This document shows positions 5,047 to 41,661 of a stretch of 64,000 nucleotides of DNA, one piece after another. The DNA is taken from IMG/VR virus record IMGVR_UViG_3300020411_000002, one strand, 5' to 3'. The position numbers were made by a program, and so were the translations under genes. The notes under the pieces were generated by a model, which saw only the letters and a program-made list of their open reading frames with translations, did not search any database and was not told the origin of the DNA. The first letter of the stretch is position 1. Each line of letters starts with the position of its first letter. The stretch comes from a virus. Its lineage: Duplodnaviria > Caudoviricetes.

Positions 5047-8000
5047 TTGCTAAATATGGGTGAAGCTGATGATTCAGAATCAGAAGATTTATCTTTCCTC
5101 GACGAAAAAGAGCAGGAGTATAACCCTCTAGATGACGGTGAAGCCATAGACGTAATAGCTATGGTGGATGAAGTAATAGAGAACGATACTCTTGTTGCTC
5201 CTGACTTACGACTCGATGACTCTAGTTGTCCCGAAGCTCCAAACGTTTTTGATTGGATGATTAGTGACAAGTTTTTAGGATGTGAACCTCCGTACTTAGA
5301 ACAAGCACTTATCTGTATACAGTTATTCGCTGAGTATTGTGTAGCCAAAGGAAGTTACATATATACAGACAAGGGCTTGCAGACAATAGAAGATGCACTT
5401 GGCAATCCTGATAAGAAAGGAATGTATGAATGTAGCTTTTCTACAGTCGGTCTGTCGGGTATAAAAGAAGCTACATACGGTGGTATGACTTCTAAACGTA
5501 GAAAGTGTTTAAAAGTATCTTATGCTAATGGTAAAAGTGTTATTGTAACACCTGAGCATAAAATACTTAAACTCAATAAAAACTATTCTTTCAGTTGGGT
5601 GGAAGCTAGACACTTGGATGTAGGGGATGTCGGTGTATCTAAATTAGGTCAGAATTTATTTCCTGTAAACGCATACCGATTAGTATTTGAAGACGTAGAA
5701 CCTTCAAGACTCTATACGCATACTTCTGGACAAGTAGTAGACAATAACAATTCAGGTAAAGATTTTAGTATACCTGAATTAATGACTAATGAGCTTGCTA
5801 GGCTTATAGGGTACTTGATAAGTGATGGTTCAGTTGCTAGACAAGGCAATTCTATAGACTTTACCTCCTTGACAGATTCAGGTTTAGCAGACGATTTTGT
5901 TTACTGCATTAAATCTGTTTTTGGATTAGATTGTAAAACAACTACAGACAATTGGAAACCTAACAGTACCCGTCCTTATTCTTACGTTCAAGTTCATAGT
6001 AGAAAACTAGTTAGATTTTTTAATAGCTTAGGTGTAAGTGGGCTTTGCTACGATAAAACAATTCCTAAGTGCATTTTAGAATCTACGCGAGAACACGTTA
6101 TTGAATGTTTACGTGCTATAATGGATTGCGACGGCTGGACAGACTATAAAGTAGGTATAGTTCTTTCTAGTCAAAAAGCTGTAAAACAAATGCAACTTCT
6201 ATTCGATAACTTAGGGTTATACGGCAAGTATAGGGAATATGTAGATACAGGAAGTGCTGTTTCTCATAGAGAACATGACGATCCTAAAAATCTTAGAGCA
6301 GAATGGGTTCTTAGGTCTTGTCCAACACAGTTCGCTTCAATTATTGGAACGCGAAACAATTTACGAAAAGATAAGTTGTTTTCCAAGACTGCTAAAGACA
6401 CATCTTTTTCCGTATCAGGTAATGGAAACTATAAACCTGGAGTAGTACCTTTTGGTAGAGAACTCTATGCATATTCAAGTACTTTGCGAGATTCTTATCA
6501 TGATAAAGGTTTGTCTTACATTAAGTATGGACGTAGAGATTCTTTTATCGTATCAAATACCTTGTCTGACCCAGACTTTGTAGATTTTTGGAATAGAAAA
6601 GATAATCGTATTTTAAGCCGACTTGAAAAGCTAGACTCCTCTAATCTTTCTTTTTCAAGAATTGTTTCTGTAGAAGATGCAGGCATACATGAGGTTTACG
6701 ATATAACTGTTCCAGATGGTGAGAACTTTCAATGTGATGGAATGATAGTTCATAATTGTCCTCGATGCAGCGATACTGAATGGATGCACATTGATAACCA
6801 TGAACCACAAGAAGGTCTTGGTGCTATCGTTGAAAAAGTGCAAATGCTTAAATTCGGTAAATGTCCTAAGTGTAAAGCAGGTCGTGCGGAAATGATACGT
6901 AGCGGTGAGCTTAACTTCTACAATGAACTAGCTGTACTAGCTGGACAGCGTAGTGGTAAGAGTATCGTTACTGCAATGGCATCAACCTATATAACCCATC
7001 GCATTCTCAAAATGCAAAAGCCAACTGAAATATTCAGAGTTGGTAAGGGGCAAATCTTACATGCTACATTCGTGGCATTGACACAGGGTCAGGCGAAAGA
7101 AACGCTTTGGGACCCTTTTCTTGGTTATATCAACAACAGTCCTTGGTTCAAGAAATATCATGCACTAATGAAATTCTATGAGCGTAAGTATCATACCGAA
7201 TTCGTGCGTGTCAAGGATATGTTCATTCACTATAAACATCGTAACTTGATTCTGTATCCTGCAGGTCCTGATAAACGTAAGCTTCGTGGTAGAACACGGG
7301 TTATTGGTGCGATAGATGAAATCGGTTGGTTCGATAACAACAAAGCAAGTAACAAGATAACGGTAGATGCTAACGGTGTGTATGAGGCTCTTGTGCGTTC
7401 ACTTGGTACTATTCGTGCATCGGAAGACAGGCTTGTTGACATTGGATACGACCAAGCACTTACTGCATATATGCTAAACATCAGTTCACCGTCTAGTATA
7501 CGTGATAAGATTTGTGAGCTAGTAAGAACGTCTATTGGTTCTAGAAAAACATTCGGTCTTCATGCTCCAACGTGGAAAATGAACCCGACTATATCTAGAA
7601 ACAGTGGATTCATTGTTGAAGAATATCGCAAAGACCCAATTACAGCCCAGCGAGACTATGGTGCTGATCCACCTCTTAGTGCTAACGCATTTATCAATAA
7701 CAAATTGCTGGTGGAAGAGGCATTCAGTAAAACGAATCGCAACTTCATTAAGTACAAGCAAGACTTTATTGTTGTTGGTAAAGAGAAGTACAGATACGGT
7801 GTCGTAGATAAAGTTAAGCCTGGGTCAAGCTATAGTATAATGGCACTCGATGCTGGATATACAAACAACAGCTTCTCAATGGTTGTTGGTTCTTTCAACT
7901 CGCAAGGCATACCTACTATCGAAGTTGTGTGTGAGATTATTCCTAGACCGGGAATTCCATTACACTATACAATGATTTACGAAGAAGTTATGAAGCCTAT

Positions 8001-30328: not shown

Positions 30329-31171
30329 TTAATCTCCAAACGCAATCCAATTAAAGTCCCATAAATCTGATAGTGGTAAACTGAAAGTTCCTTTAACACC
30401 AATAGTAAAACCACCTATATCGTTATCGATATCAATGTAAGTACCAAACTCGTAGTTCTGACTTTGATACGAGTATGGATCATTGAAGAATACCATTAGA
30501 CCTGTAACACGGTTCTTGAATGGCTCAGAAAACAATACAGTTACTTCTTCTGTACCAGTATCGTTAATGAATCTACCCCACTGATGCATTGCACCACTAC
30601 GAATCATACGTACATAAGGAGAGCGACCTTGTGTAGTGTTTCCCTCACCGTCTACTTCAATAAACGAGTGTGAGCCTTCTTCATTACGTACACCTGCGAA
30701 GTATTCTGGCTCGTCACCATCAATACCACGTTCACCAGTAGGACCTGTAGCACCAGTTGGGCCTATAGGTCCAATCACACCCTGTATACCACGTTCACCA
30801 GTAGGACCTGTAGCTCCACGAGGACCTCTGTCCCCTTTCGGTCCAATACAGCCTTGCTCCCCTTTAGGTCCATCGCGTCCATTTCTACCAGAGATTCCAG
30901 GTTGCCCTTCTTTACCACGAGGTCCAATAGGCCCAGATGGTAAGTTAAGCTCTGTAGGAATTCCAGTAACACGCACTGTTCTATTATTGATAGTAATAGA
31001 CAATACGCCTGACTGCTTATCAAACTCAGCATCGAACTTTTCAATCATGCTAGAAGTTTGTTCAGCAGGGTTCTGTGTTTGTAAGCCTTGCTCTGTATTG
31101 TAAACAGTATCACCAGTTTCCGAACCCGGCGAAGGCGATATCATTTTAAGATTAACTTTAGTCAACGACAT
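30329..31171 (-). CDS. Collagen-like fibre protein with C-terminal QWG (gp53-like) domain
   Basis: MSLTKVNLKMI N-terminus, Gly-X-Y run, HQWGR...VLFSEPF...NWIAFGD. Confidence 0.8.
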   Translation of the reverse strand: MSLTKVNLKMISPSPGSETGDTVYNTEQGLQTQNPAEQTSSMIEKFDAEFDKQSGVLSITINNRTVRVTGIPTELNLPSGPIGPRGKEGQPGISGRNGRDGPKGEQGCIGPKGDRGPRGATGPTGERGIQGVIGPIGPTGATGPTGERGIDGDEPEYFAGVRNEEGSHSFIEVDGEGNTTQGRSPYVRMIRSGAMHQWGRFINDTGTEEVTVLFSEPFKNRVTGLMVFFNDPYSYQSQNYEFGTYIDIDNDIGGFTIGVKGTFSLPLSDLWDFNWIAFGD

Positions 31172-34430: not shown

Positions 34431-37400
34431 TTATACCTTTCGATTGACTGTATCTACGTTGTGTACTAGGAAAGGATTTCTACCAACGTAGTAAGAATCA
34501 CTTTCTTCAACGTCTATACAGACTACATCAATCGGATCATCTACGCGTGTTAAAGAACCTACAAGAACTTCTTCTTTGTCTCCATAACAAGAAAGAAGTA
34601 CATCGCCTACTTTCATATCCCTAACGTCCATCCACTGCCAAGTGTCATCGCGTTTAACAAAGATAAGGTGTTCTTGGGTTATTTCAACATCACCATTAAT
34701 AATCCAATATTCTCTAAACCAATCGTGTTTGATTGCTCGAATTGTACTAACTACAGGATAACGTCCGTTTATGTCTTTAGTAGTCCAGTCTTCCCAACCA
34801 TCTACGTTTTCATCAATCATATTAGGAATGAATTCACTAACGAGTCGGTCACCTACTTTAAGTCTTTCTGCGTTAATAGATTTTCCATCTTCTAGCACGA
34901 CCATCGTACCAAAAGATATACAACCACCACCGCCACCACCTGAATAAACTTGTGCTTTCTGCTGTAAGCTTACTTCAATAGGTGCAGACTTTTGTACGTT
35001 ACCCAAGTCGTCTTTAACAAATATCTCTACTGTTAAATTGGCAATTCCTGCTAAACTTGAATTAGAAACCGCACGTTCAAACTGAATACTCATGCACTGA
35101 TTATTAGCGCCGTAGTTTGAAACACTATTAGGTACATCGGCTGTTTCTTTAGATTCATCAAAAGCACAATACGGCTTTATCGATACGCGAGACCCTGGGA
35201 TTGAATTGTTAACTGTAACAACGTTCCACTTATAGGTGTAAGAACGCGCTGGGTCAAATTCAAATTCCGCTAATAGTCTGCTAGTCCAATTAGTGCCTGC
35301 TGCTTTGTCGTCAACTCCACTTGTAGCGCTGTCCGCAGTTTTAGACATAGTAAAGCAAGCTACCTTTCCATTGTCTTGTGCATACTGAGGAACACCGTCA
35401 CCTAAGTCACCGTCAGTGCCCCAATCCATATCCAACTTATTAGAGTTAATCTTGAAAGCTAGAATAGTTTCAGGGTGTGCGTACTTAGTTGCAGTAACTT
35501 TTGCAGTACCAGTACTTCTAAGAGTTCCAGTATATACAATGTTCATATCTCCTTGAACAGGGGCAGATGATTCTACAATAGTAGCAATGCCTTCATCTTG
35601 AATGATAGCACCAACGCTTGCATCGTAGATGATAACTTTAAACTGTTCATTCGGGTCACGTTCACTATCAGCAAAAGTATTAATGCTAATAGTACCACTG
35701 CCTGCACCTGCTGGAATAGTAAGACTTCCAGATTTAGATTGATAATCTGCATTTGATGTAGGAGTAGACGGGCTTCCATCTGAACCAGTATTAGCTAGCG
35801 TAAAGTTTGTCATACGCTTAACACCGCTCTGGTTTTCGAAAGAACTAGACCCAGACAAGTCTTCAAACAGATAGCTGTCACCTGCTTTGTCTTTTATTTG
35901 CTGAACAGAAACACTACGCGCACCAGACGGGCTAGATACGGTAGAGTCAGACGCTGGAATATCTACCAAGCTCTTAATGTTGAAAGAGTTGATAAGGTCT
36001 TTAGCGTGAGCGTTAGCAAATCTGTAGTAGTTGCCTGCGGTACTTATATCAAATGCTGCTGCACTGATCACTACCATAGGCTTAGAACCTTTAGCTGCTC
36101 TCGCTACTGCAACACCAAACGCTGTACCTTGTTCAAGATTAAACATCTTGTTCAAGAAGTGATTAGAAGTATCTACTCCTGCGTTTTCTTTAGCGTGGTG
36201 TCTCCATTCTCCAAACTGGTCAGATACAATAATGTCATAGTTACCTACTACGTTTTTAGGTGAACTATAAGTTGCATCTTGGTACGAGTAGCTACCTTGC
36301 TTGACAGTTCCATGTGCATCAAACTCATTGACTACGTGAACATCAACCTGAATACCGTAAATGTTTGCCAGTGACTTAGTGAAGAAGTCCATAACAGTAG
36401 ACATTTGGTAAACGATTTCATATTCACGCTCATTTACTCTTGGATCAGGGTCATAGGGTGTAGAGTAAGATTGAATACGCTGGTGGGTTACTACCAATAG
36501 CTTTTTACCAGATAAAGAACCAAGACGGTGCTTTAACATATTAACAATCATCTTTTGGTAATCGTTAAGTTCTTCGAATGTAGAAACGCTACGGTCAACA
36601 TCCCTATTTGCATCAGTTCCATTGTATGCAGTAACTGTCTCTAGATAGTTTTCAACATCGTAAAGTCTGTGTGGGTCTGCTTCTAACATTAACGTATAGC
36701 CGTCAGTATCGTTAGAGTAAACAACTGTAGAAACATGATTACTATCTCTGAATAACGGATATGGATTAACTTCACCTGCTGCAACGGCTTCGCTGCTAGC
36801 AGTCATATCTTCCGTTCTATAGTTCAAAGACAAGTCTTCATTGATTGGATAGTTAAGACCTACTGTAAATTTAGCTGTAGAGCCTTCCGCTACTGTAATA
36901 CTATTAATAGCTATTTGAACATCAGGACAATTTGGAACTTCCTGATCATCAATCTCTACATCTAAGAGAGGAATATAACAGCCAACCCAATAAGCCCAAC
37001 TACTGTCAATAGGGCAATCGATACGTACACTGATTTCTCGCAAGTCATCGTAGTCCGCACTTTCTTCTAGTCTAAACCACTGTAAGAAAGTTGTACCTCT
37101 GCTTCGTTTAGCAGTTACTAACTTTCCTTTCTTGTTGAATACGCTAGCTGTATACGTAAAGTCTCCATAACCAGTAACTTTAATTGAAGCTACGCCGTTA
37201 TCGAGGTCGTTCATTAAGTAGTGGTCTTCTGTACTGTGGTGTCCAGCACTGTTTATGCCTGACTCTGGTACTTCACAAGGCCAACGATTCTCTTTGTACC
37301 CGCGAGTATTTGGATCATAAAGCATGTACTCTTGCGAAAGCACATCTGACCCGTACTCCCGTTGACTTGCCATTACTTTAACTACGATATCAGGAACAGC

Positions 37401-38534
37401 GTTTGCAAATCTCCAAGGGTCAAACACAATAGACAAAAGCCCATCTGTGTCTTTATTTCCCATAGTTGAAGCAATACGTTCACCGCCATGATAGACTTCA
37501 ACCCAGTCTGCATTTTCCCAAGTCTCGTAGTTAAGATGAAGAACATAAGGGCCTGTAGCAGGGTCAACTAGTCCAACTGTGTGAACGTACTCTACCCAAT
37601 ATTGTCCATCTGTGATTCTGTTCTCAAATGGAGTTACACGGCTATGAGCAGGTGCTGGAAACAAGCTAGTACCAATATACTCAGTAGTACGAATTTGTGC
37701 TAAATGTCTATTGTTGCCCGGCTCAAAGTCTTGAAGCGTAAGAAACGATTTAGGACCTATAGCAGAATACATCCATCTGCATTTGTCTTCACCACGAACA
37801 CGAATCATTACTCTATCTTCACCAGAACCGATTGCAGGGTCTAGACCGAACTCTAGTTTTCCTCTACCAGTAACTCTGCCGCATGTGGAAGCAATTAAAG
37901 CACCAAGATAATATACGTCAATAGAGATACCTTGTTCGTGGTAGCAAGCGTAAAGAATTTCAAAGATACCACCTCTATCACCTAACTCATAAATAGTTTC
38001 AGTTATTGCACTACCATTAGAGAAAGTATGCGTAGACAGGTAACTAGGATTCTCGTAACTTCCTCTACCAAGAAAAGAGTTAGTGCCCGGATTAGTATAA
38101 GTTTCTTTTGTGTTTTCAATTCCGGGTCTGTTAATTACTTGACCTTCATAAGTACCATAAGCACGTTCTAGACCAAAGCCTGCTTGACCTGCATCTGGTA
38201 AGTCGTAACCTTCTGGATATCCACGTAGTATGTCAAATTCGTTTCCACCACTACCGCTACCATCACCAGAACCTGCTTCTGTAATAGGAATAGAGTTAGA
38301 ACAAGTAAGAGAAGTAAGCATAGCTAGGTTAGCACAAGGGTCATCTAGCACATCGTCAAAAGTACAGTCCACCTGCATCCAAGTGTTGTTTCCGCTATCT
38401 CTTACTTGCGTTTGGTCTGGATAGAAACGAATCCACGTACTATTAAAGCCGTCGCGAAAATAGAACTCGCTGCTGCATTGGTCGAGCCAACCGTTATCTT
38501 GTGCATTACGAACTGTTAGTCTTGTAGTTGTCAT
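34431..38534 (-). CDS. 1367-aa adhesin/receptor-binding protein with split Calx-beta and C-terminal Hint domain
   Basis: N-terminal R-x6-W repeats, three beta-sandwich repeats, interrupted Calx-beta, SGGGGGG-C Hint domain ending VHN-VDTVNRKV. Confidence 0.8.
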   Translation of the reverse strand: MTTTRLTVRNAQDNGWLDQCSSEFYFRDGFNSTWIRFYPDQTQVRDSGNNTWMQVDCTFDDVLDDPCANLAMLTSLTCSNSIPITEAGSGDGSGSGGNEFDILRGYPEGYDLPDAGQAGFGLERAYGTYEGQVINRPGIENTKETYTNPGTNSFLGRGSYENPSYLSTHTFSNGSAITETIYELGDRGGIFEILYACYHEQGISIDVYYLGALIASTCGRVTGRGKLEFGLDPAIGSGEDRVMIRVRGEDKCRWMYSAIGPKSFLTLQDFEPGNNRHLAQIRTTEYIGTSLFPAPAHSRVTPFENRITDGQYWVEYVHTVGLVDPATGPYVLHLNYETWENADWVEVYHGGERIASTMGNKDTDGLLSIVFDPWRFANAVPDIVVKVMASQREYGSDVLSQEYMLYDPNTRGYKENRWPCEVPESGINSAGHHSTEDHYLMNDLDNGVASIKVTGYGDFTYTASVFNKKGKLVTAKRSRGTTFLQWFRLEESADYDDLREISVRIDCPIDSSWAYWVGCYIPLLDVEIDDQEVPNCPDVQIAINSITVAEGSTAKFTVGLNYPINEDLSLNYRTEDMTASSEAVAAGEVNPYPLFRDSNHVSTVVYSNDTDGYTLMLEADPHRLYDVENYLETVTAYNGTDANRDVDRSVSTFEELNDYQKMIVNMLKHRLGSLSGKKLLVVTHQRIQSYSTPYDPDPRVNEREYEIVYQMSTVMDFFTKSLANIYGIQVDVHVVNEFDAHGTVKQGSYSYQDATYSSPKNVVGNYDIIVSDQFGEWRHHAKENAGVDTSNHFLNKMFNLEQGTAFGVAVARAAKGSKPMVVISAAAFDISTAGNYYRFANAHAKDLINSFNIKSLVDIPASDSTVSSPSGARSVSVQQIKDKAGDSYLFEDLSGSSSFENQSGVKRMTNFTLANTGSDGSPSTPTSNADYQSKSGSLTIPAGAGSGTISINTFADSERDPNEQFKVIIYDASVGAIIQDEGIATIVESSAPVQGDMNIVYTGTLRSTGTAKVTATKYAHPETILAFKINSNKLDMDWGTDGDLGDGVPQYAQDNGKVACFTMSKTADSATSGVDDKAAGTNWTSRLLAEFEFDPARSYTYKWNVVTVNNSIPGSRVSIKPYCAFDESKETADVPNSVSNYGANNQCMSIQFERAVSNSSLAGIANLTVEIFVKDDLGNVQKSAPIEVSLQQKAQVYSGGGGGGCISFGTMVVLEDGKSINAERLKVGDRLVSEFIPNMIDENVDGWEDWTTKDINGRYPVVSTIRAIKHDWFREYWIINGDVEITQEHLIFVKRDDTWQWMDVRDMKVGDVLLSCYGDKEEVLVGSLTRVDDPIDVVCIDVEESDSYYVGRNPFLVHNVDTVNRKV
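34458..34922 (-). other. Hint (intein-like) domain 1, 155 aa
   Basis: CISFGT...LKVGD, block B TQEH, DVEESDSYY, LVHN; +1 residue Val; no endonuclease. Confidence 0.9.
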
Positions 38535-38543
38535 AGCACTACC

Positions 38544-39038
38544 TTAGCGAGGTTTAATCCATAAAGCACCAGCACCAACAGGACCTGGGTCTTCTGTAGT
38601 TATATAGATACTTACTTTACCATCTAATCCATGTTCGCCTTGAGGTCCAGTAGCACCAATAGGTCCCTGCTCCCCTTGCTTTCCTTGCGCACCACGAACA
38701 CCACGTTCTCCAACTGGGCCACGAGGACCTCTACATCCACGTTCACCACGCAATCCATTTTCACCAAGAAGTCCATTAATACCAGCGTTACCAGAAACAC
38801 CTTGAGGCCCTTCTTTACCAGTACCAACATCACTTTGAGTCATAAAGTTATTGATACGTAGAACAGGATAGCCTGGGATGCTTAGCGTAAGAGTACCAGA
38901 CGTATTATCGTAGTAACCTTCTAACGTGTCTGCTACTTCATCATCTGTTACAATAGACAAACCTCTACCAGAAGATTCTACATTACCTACAGTAGAACCA
39001 CCACTAATCATGTTCAAGTTAGCTTTTGTAATAGCCAT
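38544..39038 (-). CDS. Short collagen-like fibre protein
   Basis: MAITKANLNMI, YYDNTSGTLTL domain, Gly-X-Y run, ends EDPGPVGAGALWIKPR. Confidence 0.8.
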   Translation of the reverse strand: MAITKANLNMISGGSTVGNVESSGRGLSIVTDDEVADTLEGYYDNTSGTLTLSIPGYPVLRINNFMTQSDVGTGKEGPQGVSGNAGINGLLGENGLRGERGCRGPRGPVGERGVRGAQGKQGEQGPIGATGPQGEHGLDGKVSIYITTEDPGPVGAGALWIKPR

Positions 39039-39050
39039 AATAAGTCTCTC

Positions 39051-39686
39051 TTAAAATTGGTCTAAGTCATCATCGTACTGACCGATATCTGGATTTACCC
39101 AAATAGAGCCAGGTCCTATGCTAGAGCCAGGGTCTGTACTACTAATAACTATGTTGATGTTTCCAGCAGGGCCTTGCTCTCCACGTGGGCCAGTAGGACC
39201 TGTAGCACCAGTAGGTCCAGTTGGGCCTACATCACCACGCTCACCTTTCTTTCCTTGCAGTCCACGTGGGCCCATAGGTCCAGCACATCCAGCAGGACCT
39301 GGAAGTCCAACTTGTCCATCACGACCATTCTGTCCATCTTCACCACGAGGGCCTGTAGGTCCAATAGGTCCAATACAGCCTTCGTCACCAACTTCTCCAT
39401 CTTTACCATCGCGTCCATCACGACCATCTTCGCCAGCTTCTCCTTGAGGACCTTGCTGACCCTGAGGAATGCTATCGAATGTAGGAAAGCCAGTAATAGC
39501 AATCTCATTACCGCTAGCAAATGTTAGAGTAAGAATGCCGCTTCCTTGGTCATAAAATCCAGCTTCGATTTCGCTGGTGGTGTCAACTGCTTCGCTAGAC
39601 GTAGCAAGCTTTCCGTTTTTGACAACTACACTACTGCCTTCGTCACCTGATGACCGTACCATAGTTACAGGAATTTTTGTAAGCAT
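39051..39686 (-). CDS. Collagen-like fibre protein
   Basis: MLTKIPVTMV, FYDQGSGILTL domain, long Gly-X-Y run, ends TDPGSSIGPGSIWVNP. Confidence 0.8.
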   Translation of the reverse strand: MLTKIPVTMVRSSGDEGSSVVVKNGKLATSSEAVDTTSEIEAGFYDQGSGILTLTFASGNEIAITGFPTFDSIPQGQQGPQGEAGEDGRDGRDGKDGEVGDEGCIGPIGPTGPRGEDGQNGRDGQVGLPGPAGCAGPMGPRGLQGKKGERGDVGPTGPTGATGPTGPRGEQGPAGNINIVISSTDPGSSIGPGSIWVNPDIGQYDDDLDQF

Positions 39687-39688
39687 AA

Positions 39689-40150
39689 TTAAACCCTGTT
39701 ATGTACTAAAATGCCATTTAGAAAATATGTATCACACATATCAACCTTTAGCTCGAATGTTTGTACACTAACTTCTATAAAAGAAATTGTCTCTACTTGA
39801 AATTGCGTAGAGTGTCCAAACATAACATCACCTTTTTGAATTTGTGGAGGCTTTTTCCATTCCCAAAAATCATTACGCTTGATTAAAATGGGTTGGTCGG
39901 CTACAAAGTGCATCAAGTTTATTTTATAGTATCCACTACGTATAAATATTTCGCGGTCTATAACAGTGCCTTCAATAACTTTTCCTTGAACGTCTTTTGT
40001 AGCCCATTCCATAGCGAACTCTTGATTACCAAATCTAGAACTAGGCATAGCACCTATTCTTAATGCAGTAATCTGATCGCCTACGAATACATCTTGTGTA
40101 TTCTTACTTTTAAGAGTATCTGTTCCTGTAGTAATCCTTTGCTTAATCAT
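39689..40150 (-). CDS. Stand-alone Hint-domain protein lacking Cys1 and block-B TxxH
   Basis: VFVGD, IQKGD, KVDMCDTYFLNGILVHN-RV; TAATG coupling to the upstream gene. Confidence 0.85.
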   Translation of the reverse strand: MIKQRITTGTDTLKSKNTQDVFVGDQITALRIGAMPSSRFGNQEFAMEWATKDVQGKVIEGTVIDREIFIRSGYYKINLMHFVADQPILIKRNDFWEWKKPPQIQKGDVMFGHSTQFQVETISFIEVSVQTFELKVDMCDTYFLNGILVHNRV

Positions 40151-41661
40151 TAGTGCTTAACCGTTTGTGTTGTGTTATGGACAACAATAGGCTCATGTCC
40201 GGCAAAGTAGTTATCGTATGGTTCAACGTCTAGTACGACAACATTGAGATTTTCTTTAACTTGATCGATAGACTTGATTTCAATAACTCCATCTGTACCT
40301 TTAAGAAAGTCACCAACTTTAATGTCAGTCGCATCATACCAACCCCACTGCTGATTCTTTCTAACTAGAACAGGGTGGTCTTGGGTAATACATACGTCAT
40401 TGTTAATCTTCCAATACTGAGTGTAGCTAGCATTGTAAGCAACTCGCGCTGTAGTAGGTACAATCTTCGGATTCTTGAACTCTGTAGTCTTCCAATCTTT
40501 CCAATTTCTTTCGTCTTCGTCTAGCATTCCTGTCGAAGTAAAGGACTGTAGAGTATCGCCTACTTTAACATATTTAGCTCGTTTAGTACTTCCATCCCAC
40601 ATAAGAATTGGAGTATCTTCGTGTACACAACCACCGCCACCAACTATGATAGGACCTCCAGGCTCAGTCTCTTCACTATTATCTCTGCTGTTGTAACCTG
40701 AGAAAGAGAAGCGAATATTCTTGATAGACAAACGTTTATTGTTATCGCCTCTATCTGTAATAACGAGTTCCATCTTACCAGAAAAGCTATAGCTTTGTTG
40801 AGGTTGAATAGTACGTAATGCAGCAATCTTTAGTGAACGTGACGTAGTAGAACCGTCAATAGAAATTCCAGCTTCACGCATACTGTTATCAGTATCGACC
40901 CACTTGTAACTGAAAGGACCTATTCCACCTTCAAAGTTCGTTAATGAAAGAATAGCGTTACCGCCGTAAGAATCATCAGTAACGTGAGCTAGTCTAACAC
41001 TAACATCTGTTACTTGTCCTGACATTGGATCAGCTTCTACTATCGGTGAGGGAAGAGAAGTGCCACTAGGTCGCGCCCAAAGAAAGTAGTTTGAGTCTGG
41101 TGCGTTCTCTCCATAGTATACTGTTTCCGCTGGTTTGATTCCTTGTATACCACGTTCACCAACTATACAGCTAGGCCCAGCAGGTCCAACAGGTCCCATG
41201 TTACCAACGTCACCATCTTCACCAGTGTCTCCACGCAATCCAATAGGACCGGGACACCCCATATATCCAGTAACACCAGTTTCACCATCATTACCATCTA
41301 GACCTTTATTGCCAGCTTCACCAGTAGGTCCAATCGGTCCTTCGCATCCAGTCTTTCCTTTCTTACCATCACGACCAATTCTACCATCACGACCTTTCTT
41401 GCCAGCAGGGCCTTTATCTCCACGAGGACCTTCACCCATCTGACCGAGCGTTAAGAATCCAGACACCTCTACAACTTCACCATTATGTCTGACAAAGTTG
41501 AGTGTGCCTGTTCTCTTGTTGAATCCGATTTGTGCAATAGCTCTTTCGCTAACAGGTTGTTCTGAACTGTATGCTAAACTTTTTAGGGAATCAGTCTTTA
41601 AACTAGTTCCCTCTTTATTCTTGCTAGGTACAAGACTTTTAATGTTAGCTTCTTGTGCCAT
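40150..41661 (-). CDS. Collagen-like fibre protein with C-terminal Hint domain
   Basis: FNKRTGTLNF domain, Gly-X-Y run, beta domain, IVGGGG-CVHEDT...TQDH...VVHN-TTQTVKH. Confidence 0.85.
   Translation of the reverse strand: MAQEANIKSLVPSKNKEGTSLKTDSLKSLAYSSEQPVSERAIAQIGFNKRTGTLNFVRHNGEVVEVSGFLTLGQMGEGPRGDKGPAGKKGRDGRIGRDGKKGKTGCEGPIGPTGEAGNKGLDGNDGETGVTGYMGCPGPIGLRGDTGEDGDVGNMGPVGPAGPSCIVGERGIQGIKPAETVYYGENAPDSNYFLWARPSGTSLPSPIVEADPMSGQVTDVSVRLAHVTDDSYGGNAILSLTNFEGGIGPFSYKWVDTDNSMREAGISIDGSTTSRSLKIAALRTIQPQQSYSFSGKMELVITDRGDNNKRLSIKNIRFSFSGYNSRDNSEETEPGGPIIVGGGGCVHEDTPILMWDGSTKRAKYVKVGDTLQSFTSTGMLDEDERNWKDWKTTEFKNPKIVPTTARVAYNASYTQYWKINNDVCITQDHPVLVRKNQQWGWYDATDIKVGDFLKGTDGVIEIKSIDQVKENLNVVVLDVEPYDNYFAGHEPIVVHNTTQTVKH
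40174..40629 (-). other. Hint (intein-like) domain 2, 152 aa
   Basis: Cys1, TQDH, DVEPYDNYF, VVHN with +1 Thr; no endonuclease. Confidence 0.9.

Follow-up and report, generated by a model that had tools for sequence, protein, structure and literature searches.

Hint domains are single-turnover, self-cutting enzymes, known from inteins, Hedgehog proteins, BIL domains and pretoxin modules. The window analysed here, i.e., the whole stretch of 64,000 nucleotides from a virus of the Caudoviricetes (IMG/VR record IMGVR_UViG_3300020411_000002), contains a gene on the minus strand (positions 39689–40150) which encodes a Hint as a protein of its own (P0001, 153 amino acids, "the free Hint"), located among the genes for collagen-like fibre proteins. 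It has the Hint fold, Met at the position of Cys1, and the terminal residues VHN-RV.

The systems to which the free Hint can be compared are the A-type BIL domains, the Hedgehog domain HhC, the inteins, and the trans-acting chaperones of certain phage tail fibres. The A-type BIL domains (2LWY of Clostridium thermocellum; 6Y75/6TMM, BIL2 of Tetrahymena BUBL) have the same fold as the free Hint (Z 16–17) and, like it, are without a homing endonuclease. The complete BIL layout, namely a Gly|Cys1 junction, TxxH and a terminal His-Asn in a module that closes the C-terminus of a structural or secreted protein, is present in the fused paralogues encoded next door, whereas the free Hint has no useful exteins, no Cys1, no TxxH and no block F Asp, and consequently does not cleave, splice or conjugate. 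HhC (1AT0) also has the Hint fold (Z 15.5). It lies at the C-terminus after a Gly|Cys and releases the N-terminal part of its protein through a thioester, the excised product being a free Hint of similar size; the free Hint of the window, however, is encoded as such rather than released, and lacks both the sterol-recognition region and the nucleophile. Inteins, including those of class 3 (which are without Cys1), have the fold and the block structure in common with the free Hint, but the free Hint is not inserted in a host protein, is not mobile, has Arg at position +1 and has no WCT block F Cys.

The Alteromonas phages A5 and V22 have tail-fibre chaperones which act in trans and are similar to intramolecular chaperone domains (the Peptidase_S74 IMC domains) [PMC10579305]. 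The two situations are alike in that some fibres have a C-terminal self-cleaving module and others have a separate small gene adjacent to the fibre gene. They differ in that Hint is not the IMC fold and in that the free Hint gene is upstream, not downstream, of the candidate fibre gene. A search of the literature for free-standing inactive Hints in phages found none; the only earlier sign of one is the name "intein domain protein", assigned automatically to BN7874_135 of Phage NCTB (GenBank LT598654), for which no description of a dead active site, a family or a role was found.

The evidence below indicates that the free Hint is a genuine but catalytically dead pseudo-Hint, belonging to an old marine-clade family, that probably acts by binding, as an accessory subunit of the fibre module. 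A conserved family that has the fold without the chemistry, and is separately encoded, would mean that the Hint fold can be re-used purely for binding. As a naturally occurring case, the free Hint also lends itself to the question of what a Hint might do once excised. Its practical use will be modest as long as it has no known partner.

Limits, fold and active site of the free Hint

The free Hint aligns with the C-terminal Hint modules of both neighbouring fibre proteins: that of the 1367-amino-acid adhesin-like protein (BLASTP 3e-12, 150 residues covered) and that of the 503-amino-acid collagen fibre A (BLASTP 6e-10). An initial annotation of this region had claimed that the distance from residue 1 to the conserved VGD is 25 amino acids in all three Hints (CISF..., CVHE... 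and MIKQ...). A direct count agrees, with V23, G24 and D25 invariant; the number is limited to the sub-clade of the window, as it is 24 in the orthologue P0008 and 22 in those from NCTB and L016. The same annotation had placed the start of the protein where an excised Hint would begin, and this is borne out by an alignment of 15 sequences, in which Met1 occupies the Cys1 column, and by the structural model, in which Met1 is within about two residues of the position of Cys1.

The stop codon of fibre A and the start codon of the free Hint overlap by one base in the sequence TAATG (40148–40152, minus strand, by sequence reading). This overlap, from which a translational coupling had been proposed, is not shared by all lineages: L020, L022 and L023 have gaps of 9–27 nt to the upstream gene instead. 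An N-terminal extension, or read-in from gene A, is excluded by an in-frame TAA read directly at 40157–40159 (minus strand), three codons (9 nt) before the ATG of Met1. This TAA, together with the gaps of 9–27 nt elsewhere, also rules out a fusion to gene A by frameshift or read-through.

The AlphaFold2 model of the free Hint (pLDDT 93.8) is predicted to have a complete Hint fold, i.e., the horseshoe-shaped, all-beta fold by which the HINT superfamily is defined, and the model of P0015, an orthologue without His-Asn, also has a pLDDT of 93.8. The best matches of the free Hint model in Foldseek are the BIL domains 2LWY and 6TMM. In VIA-align they are the BIL domains 6y75 and 2lwy, next to which come inteins or mini-inteins and Hedgehog HhC (Z 15–17, rmsd 1.5–2.1 Å, about 125 residues). 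The superposition extends from residue 1–2 to the last residue (1–153), and residues 1–2 of the model superpose on residue 3 of BIL and intein chains numbered from Cys1. By its modelled fold the free Hint is a member of the HINT superfamily, nearest to BIL domains; with Pfam PT-HINT it scores 15.8 bits, under the cut-off of 27.7.

The active sites were compared in the 15-sequence alignment, which comprises nine representatives of the free Hint family and six fused Hints. The nucleophile at position 1 (Cys, Ser or Thr) is Cys in the six fused Hints and is replaced by Met in all nine free Hints. In block B, the Thr of Thr-x-x-His is changed to Val, Ile, Gly, Ala or Pro and the His to Gln, Tyr or Leu, again in nine of nine; thus, the ITQDH or ITQEH of the fused Hints corresponds to FVADQ in the free Hint of the window, and the loss of Cys1 and TxxH noticed at first sight is real. 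The Asp of block F (6/6 fused Hints) is Lys in P0001, and Lys, Glu, Leu, Ile or Arg across the family. The terminal His-Asn is kept in five of the nine representatives, including P0001, and is Tyr-Ala, Tyr-Ser or Tyr-Thr in the other four; the VHN described as retained is therefore kept in P0001, where only RV comes after it, and is not a trait of the family.

An intein has two exteins and Cys, Ser or Thr at position +1, whereas the Asn of the free Hint is trailed by Arg-Val only. The block F Cys and WCT triplet of class 3 inteins are likewise missing: C139 is not a conserved residue of the family and lies outside the Asp/Cys column, and a class 3 mechanism was rejected on the alignment of block F. 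There is no conserved Lys or Cys in the family that could accept an acyl group. Catalysis by the free Hint is excluded, since it lacks a nucleophile, a general base and an extein alike. As judged from the alignment, it does not qualify as an active intein, BIL or Hedgehog domain.

Distribution and evolution of the free Hint family

A homologue search among 1.84 billion representatives gave 170 matches, including seven 50%-identity clusters of proteins of 150–157 amino acids that begin, like the free Hint, with M-[IVLF]-[KTR]-Q. The nearest annotated relative is Phage NCTB, whose orthologue (the BN7874_135 product mentioned above) has 153 amino acids, 39% identity and the same gene order. NCTB belongs to the hairy jumbo myoviruses of the "Lupandier" group [PMC7412058, PMC6143709], to whose hairs no protein has yet been assigned [PMC6143709]. 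Metagenome contigs were examined for six of the seven clusters, so that, together with the window and NCTB, eight lineages could be compared. In all eight, the free Hint gene is directly after a gene ending in a Hint and directly before collagen B. The order in the five longest loci, and in the four longer of the six contigs, is a protein of ~810 amino acids, collagen-Hint, free Hint, collagen B, collagen C and a Hint protein of ~1375 amino acids; in short contigs only the part of this order around the free Hint is visible. Close variants of the free Hint are present in many marine metagenomes. Three single-protein scans of IMG/VR for related loci found nothing, a word-based protein search of IMG/VR found only the 97% cluster, and megablast of phage genomes gave no match.

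A tree of 45 Hint domains places the free Hints in a single group (98/99), which branches on a long stem away from every fused Hint; within the same phages, the Hint of fibre A and that of the adhesin cluster with each other (99/99). The residues that are invariant in the free Hint family are M1, Q4, P36, W49, A50, N78, L89, R92, W98, D108 and N145, among which Q4, P36, W49-A50, R92 and N145 are peculiar to it. In comparison with the fused Hints, there is an insertion of three residues in the M-I-D-E...W-x-D-W loop (now M-P-S-S-R-x-G-N...E-W-A), and a deletion of two residues ahead of the last strand. The net charge has also changed: it is −2 to +6 for free Hints and −4 to −19 for 34 of the 35 fused Hints. 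By its separate grouping, its invariant residues, its insertion and deletion and its altered charge, the free Hint is a paralogue that has diverged under constraints of its own; it is not, as had been suggested, a retained copy of what cleavage releases. Together, the free Hints are an old family of single origin, found only in a marine clade of the Lupandier-group (hairy myovirus) jumbo phages.

Between the free Hint of the window and that of the L003 haplotype there are 15 nucleotide differences and three amino acid differences, giving a dN/dS of 0.057; the value for gene A in the same comparison is similar (0.065). The closest haplotype differs by four non-synonymous changes and one synonymous change, too few to interpret. 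The pattern of substitution indicates that the free Hint is kept under purifying selection. Of the signs named in the initial annotation as speaking against it, decay is not seen among the homologues of the marine clade, but absence is, in the cultured relatives. The constraint is weak, as no other product of the module is so poorly conserved or evolves so fast. Averaged over all pairs from five genomes, identity is 31% for the free Hint, and rises from 42% for the Hint of A, through 51% for the rest of A, 53% for the rest of the adhesin, 54% for the Hint of the adhesin, 61% for the 808-amino-acid protein and 63% for collagen C, to 70% for collagen B.

Thus, the gene is real, it is under purifying selection, its product has no N-terminal reaction and it has the size of an excised Hint, from which it follows that the fold is used for something other than self-cutting. 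To this extent the initial annotation, which held that the Hint fold has a job after cleavage, is supported; its further readings, a retained copy and a chaperone, are not. Contigs from four metatranscriptome libraries map to the module, one of them (39768–40366) extending across the junction of fibre A and the free Hint; they are a weak indication that the free Hint is transcribed, as the contigs give neither strand nor ends and carry-over of DNA is possible. Another metatranscriptome contig (X15) joins position 35031 to 35696, skipping 664 nt of the 1367-amino-acid gene; as only 22 letters lie on the shorter side, either variation between strains or a faulty join is the probable cause.

The fibre module and the role of the free Hint

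The free Hint is part of a tightly packed, late-type operon which encodes, in order, a 1600-amino-acid protein, an 808-amino-acid protein, fibre A, the free Hint, collagen B, collagen C, the 1367-amino-acid protein and an 841-amino-acid Calx-beta protein. No minus-strand terminators were found within the fibre module, and promoter-like sites are not in excess. Collagen fibre A (40150–41661, minus strand, 503 amino acids) consists of an N-domain, collagen repeats, an Ig-like/SprB-like domain and a catalytic Hint (about 40153–40629, minus strand) with a GGGG|C junction, HN and the tail TTQTVKH. The 1367-amino-acid protein (34431–38534, minus strand) has Calx-beta, a GGGGGG|C junction and the end HN-VDTVNRKV, its catalytic Hint being located at about 34434–34922 (minus strand). 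Collagen fibre B (39051–39686, minus strand, 211 amino acids, no Hint) starts 2 nt past the stop codon of the free Hint and ends in an acidic tail, IGQYDDDLDQF (39054–39083, minus strand), a candidate docking peptide. Collagen fibre C (38544–39038, minus strand, 164 amino acids) has neither Hint nor tail. A fourth collagen paralogue of 280 amino acids (30329–31171, minus strand) has the same N-domain, another globular C-terminal domain and no Hint.

The residue at +1 after the His-Asn of fibre A (Thr in the window; 40150–40179, minus strand) is variable, being Ala, Ile, Asn, Lys or Met elsewhere, and fibre A of L023 has a single residue after the Asn of its Hint; splicing of the seven-residue tag is thus unlikely as a conserved reaction of fibre A. 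The L023 protein (5468–6991) also differs at the other end of its Hint, where seven residues separate poly-Gly and Cys1 (GGGGG-FRDADFE|C).

Cultured relatives assemble the same fibres without the free Hint. Orthologues of B and C are found without it in Erwinia phage Y3, Dickeya phage JA11 and Pseudomonas phage PaBG, Lu11 has B without it, and the JA phages likewise have B and no free Hint. In Y3, fibre A has its Hint, and the orthologue of the 1367-amino-acid protein (L002, 7554–9572; 672 amino acids) is without the C-terminal 830 amino acids, which include Calx-beta and the Hint. Fibre A of JA11 (L026, 5010–5984; 324 amino acids) aligns to residues 29–309 of fibre A and ends where the Hint would begin. 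The free Hint itself is found only in phages which have an additional Hint on the large adhesin. By these orthologues, Hint modules are optional in the fibres of this phage group: more than once, hairy jumbo phages have acquired or shed the C-terminal Gly|Cys-Hint module of their fibres.

The initial annotation had proposed a trans-acting chaperone for the Hint-less collagens downstream: the free Hint would assist the folding of B and C in trans, as A's own Hint does in cis. The position of its gene, which immediately precedes those of B and C at closely spaced junctions, and the precedent of the Alteromonas trans-acting chaperones are in keeping with this, but the presence of B and C (in Lu11, at least B) in relatives without a free Hint makes a general need for it in their folding unlikely, the Hint-less fibre A of JA11 implies that Hints are not needed to fold these collagens, and collagen C has no clade-specific feature. 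A chaperone role is accordingly improbable. With catalysis excluded and no general folding need likely, binding within the fibre module is the role that is left.

The accessory, binding subunit that we favour probably originated as a self-cleaving C-terminal Hint module of the type carried by many phage structural proteins. All of the residues for the N-terminal acyl shift were then lost, and in about half of the lineages the terminal His-Asn as well, while the fold was kept, a conserved N-terminus of its own (M-x-K/T/R-Q) was gained and the acidic surface of the fused Hints was shed. The gene is fixed between the genes of collagen fibres A and B, and its product probably serves as a binding subunit of the tail-fibre module, i.e., as an assembly factor, a detachable cap or an adaptor. 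PHROGs, the ESM Atlas and the literature gave no functional lead for the free Hint.

Collagen B can be named as a partner tentatively at most, through its acidic C-terminal tail. It is a candidate because of its clade-specific tail and because the junction between the free Hint and B is the tightest of the fibre module: four lineages have an overlap of 10–11 nt between the stop codon of the free Hint and the start of B, two have an overlap of 1 nt, and the gap is 2 nt in the window and 1 nt in L014. The tail, GQ[YF]DDD[LI]DQF, is invariant wherever the free Hint exists (the window and the orthologues of L016, L020, L022, L023 and L001), and is unaligned or absent in Y3, PaBG, Lu11, the JA phages (JA11) and HRDY3, in which the alignment ends at 199–203 or the tail differs. 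The negative charge lost by the free Hints fits an acidic partner. However, the co-occurrence of free Hint, B tail and adhesin Hint may reflect a single evolutionary event and so cannot single out the partner, and a predicted complex of the free Hint and B residues 160–211 (score 0.00, in a single run without controls) speaks neither for nor against binding. The more specific proposal, that the free Hint docks non-covalently on the acidic tail of B and so restores in trans a "fibre-Hint" precursor like that of fibre A, where the Hint is in cis, is rather unlikely. If it were true, a self-cleaving module would have become a detachable subunit (a cap, an assembly factor or a distal adhesin) of the hair-like phage fibres.

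The free Hint could instead be a component of the virion at the fibre tip, helping host recognition as an adhesin or adaptor. Such a role would explain its fast evolution, unmatched by any other product of this host-recognition module, and the changed surface charge and the excess of amino acid over silent changes between the closest haplotypes point the same way; those counts, however, are tiny, and the longer comparison gives a dN/dS of 0.06, so that this too is improbable. It is no more probable that the free Hint regulates the cis-Hints, binding the Hint or the poly-Gly junction of A, of the 1367-amino-acid protein or of both, and thereby timing or blocking cleavage, or accepting or steering the thioester. 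It is made from the same operon as the cis-Hints and occurs only in phages that have the second Hint on the adhesin, but it offers no conserved acyl-accepting Lys or Cys, Hint domains are normally monomeric single-turnover enzymes, and nothing in the analysis points to contact between Hints.

A functionless, decaying remnant of a partial duplication of the 3′ end of gene A would account for the loss of catalytic residues and the fast evolution; it is very hard to reconcile with intact open reading frames of 150–157 amino acids in eight lineages at 23–43% identity, a conserved start motif, a fixed position, a confident fold and the dN/dS of 0.057. That the free Hint is still an enzyme, either a class-3-like intein with an internal Cys or a C-terminal Asn-cyclisation protease, is scarcely credible despite the His-Asn of P0001 and a C139 near block F, as the N-extein is absent, the C-extein is two residues long, C139 is off the position of the block F nucleophile and is not conserved, and the family has lost His-Asn in 4/9 and the block B His in 9/9.

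A second class of free or split Hints seemed to be present in the databases, namely many proteins of 145–166 amino acids whose start, "MADGS.K.IEDL", falls ~9 residues after Cys1, but these were rejected as truncated gene calls: when L019 is read from stop to stop, the "MADGS" proteins belong to long proteins with an ordinary GGGGG|C-Hint. In L019 (34–1854 and 1851–2432) and L018 (16–997), a long Cys-rich repeat protein has a linker of (T/S)VN repeats and a GGGGG|C-Hint at its end. Directly after the gene for the Cys-rich Hint protein, these two unrelated contigs both encode a PF13640 2OG-Fe(II) oxygenase. The structurally nearest clusters in the ESM Atlas are phage proteins of 226–668 amino acids, in which the same Hint comes after Laminin_G_3, fn3 or DUF642; the variety of these domains implies that the terminal Hint is a widespread module of phage structural and adhesin proteins.
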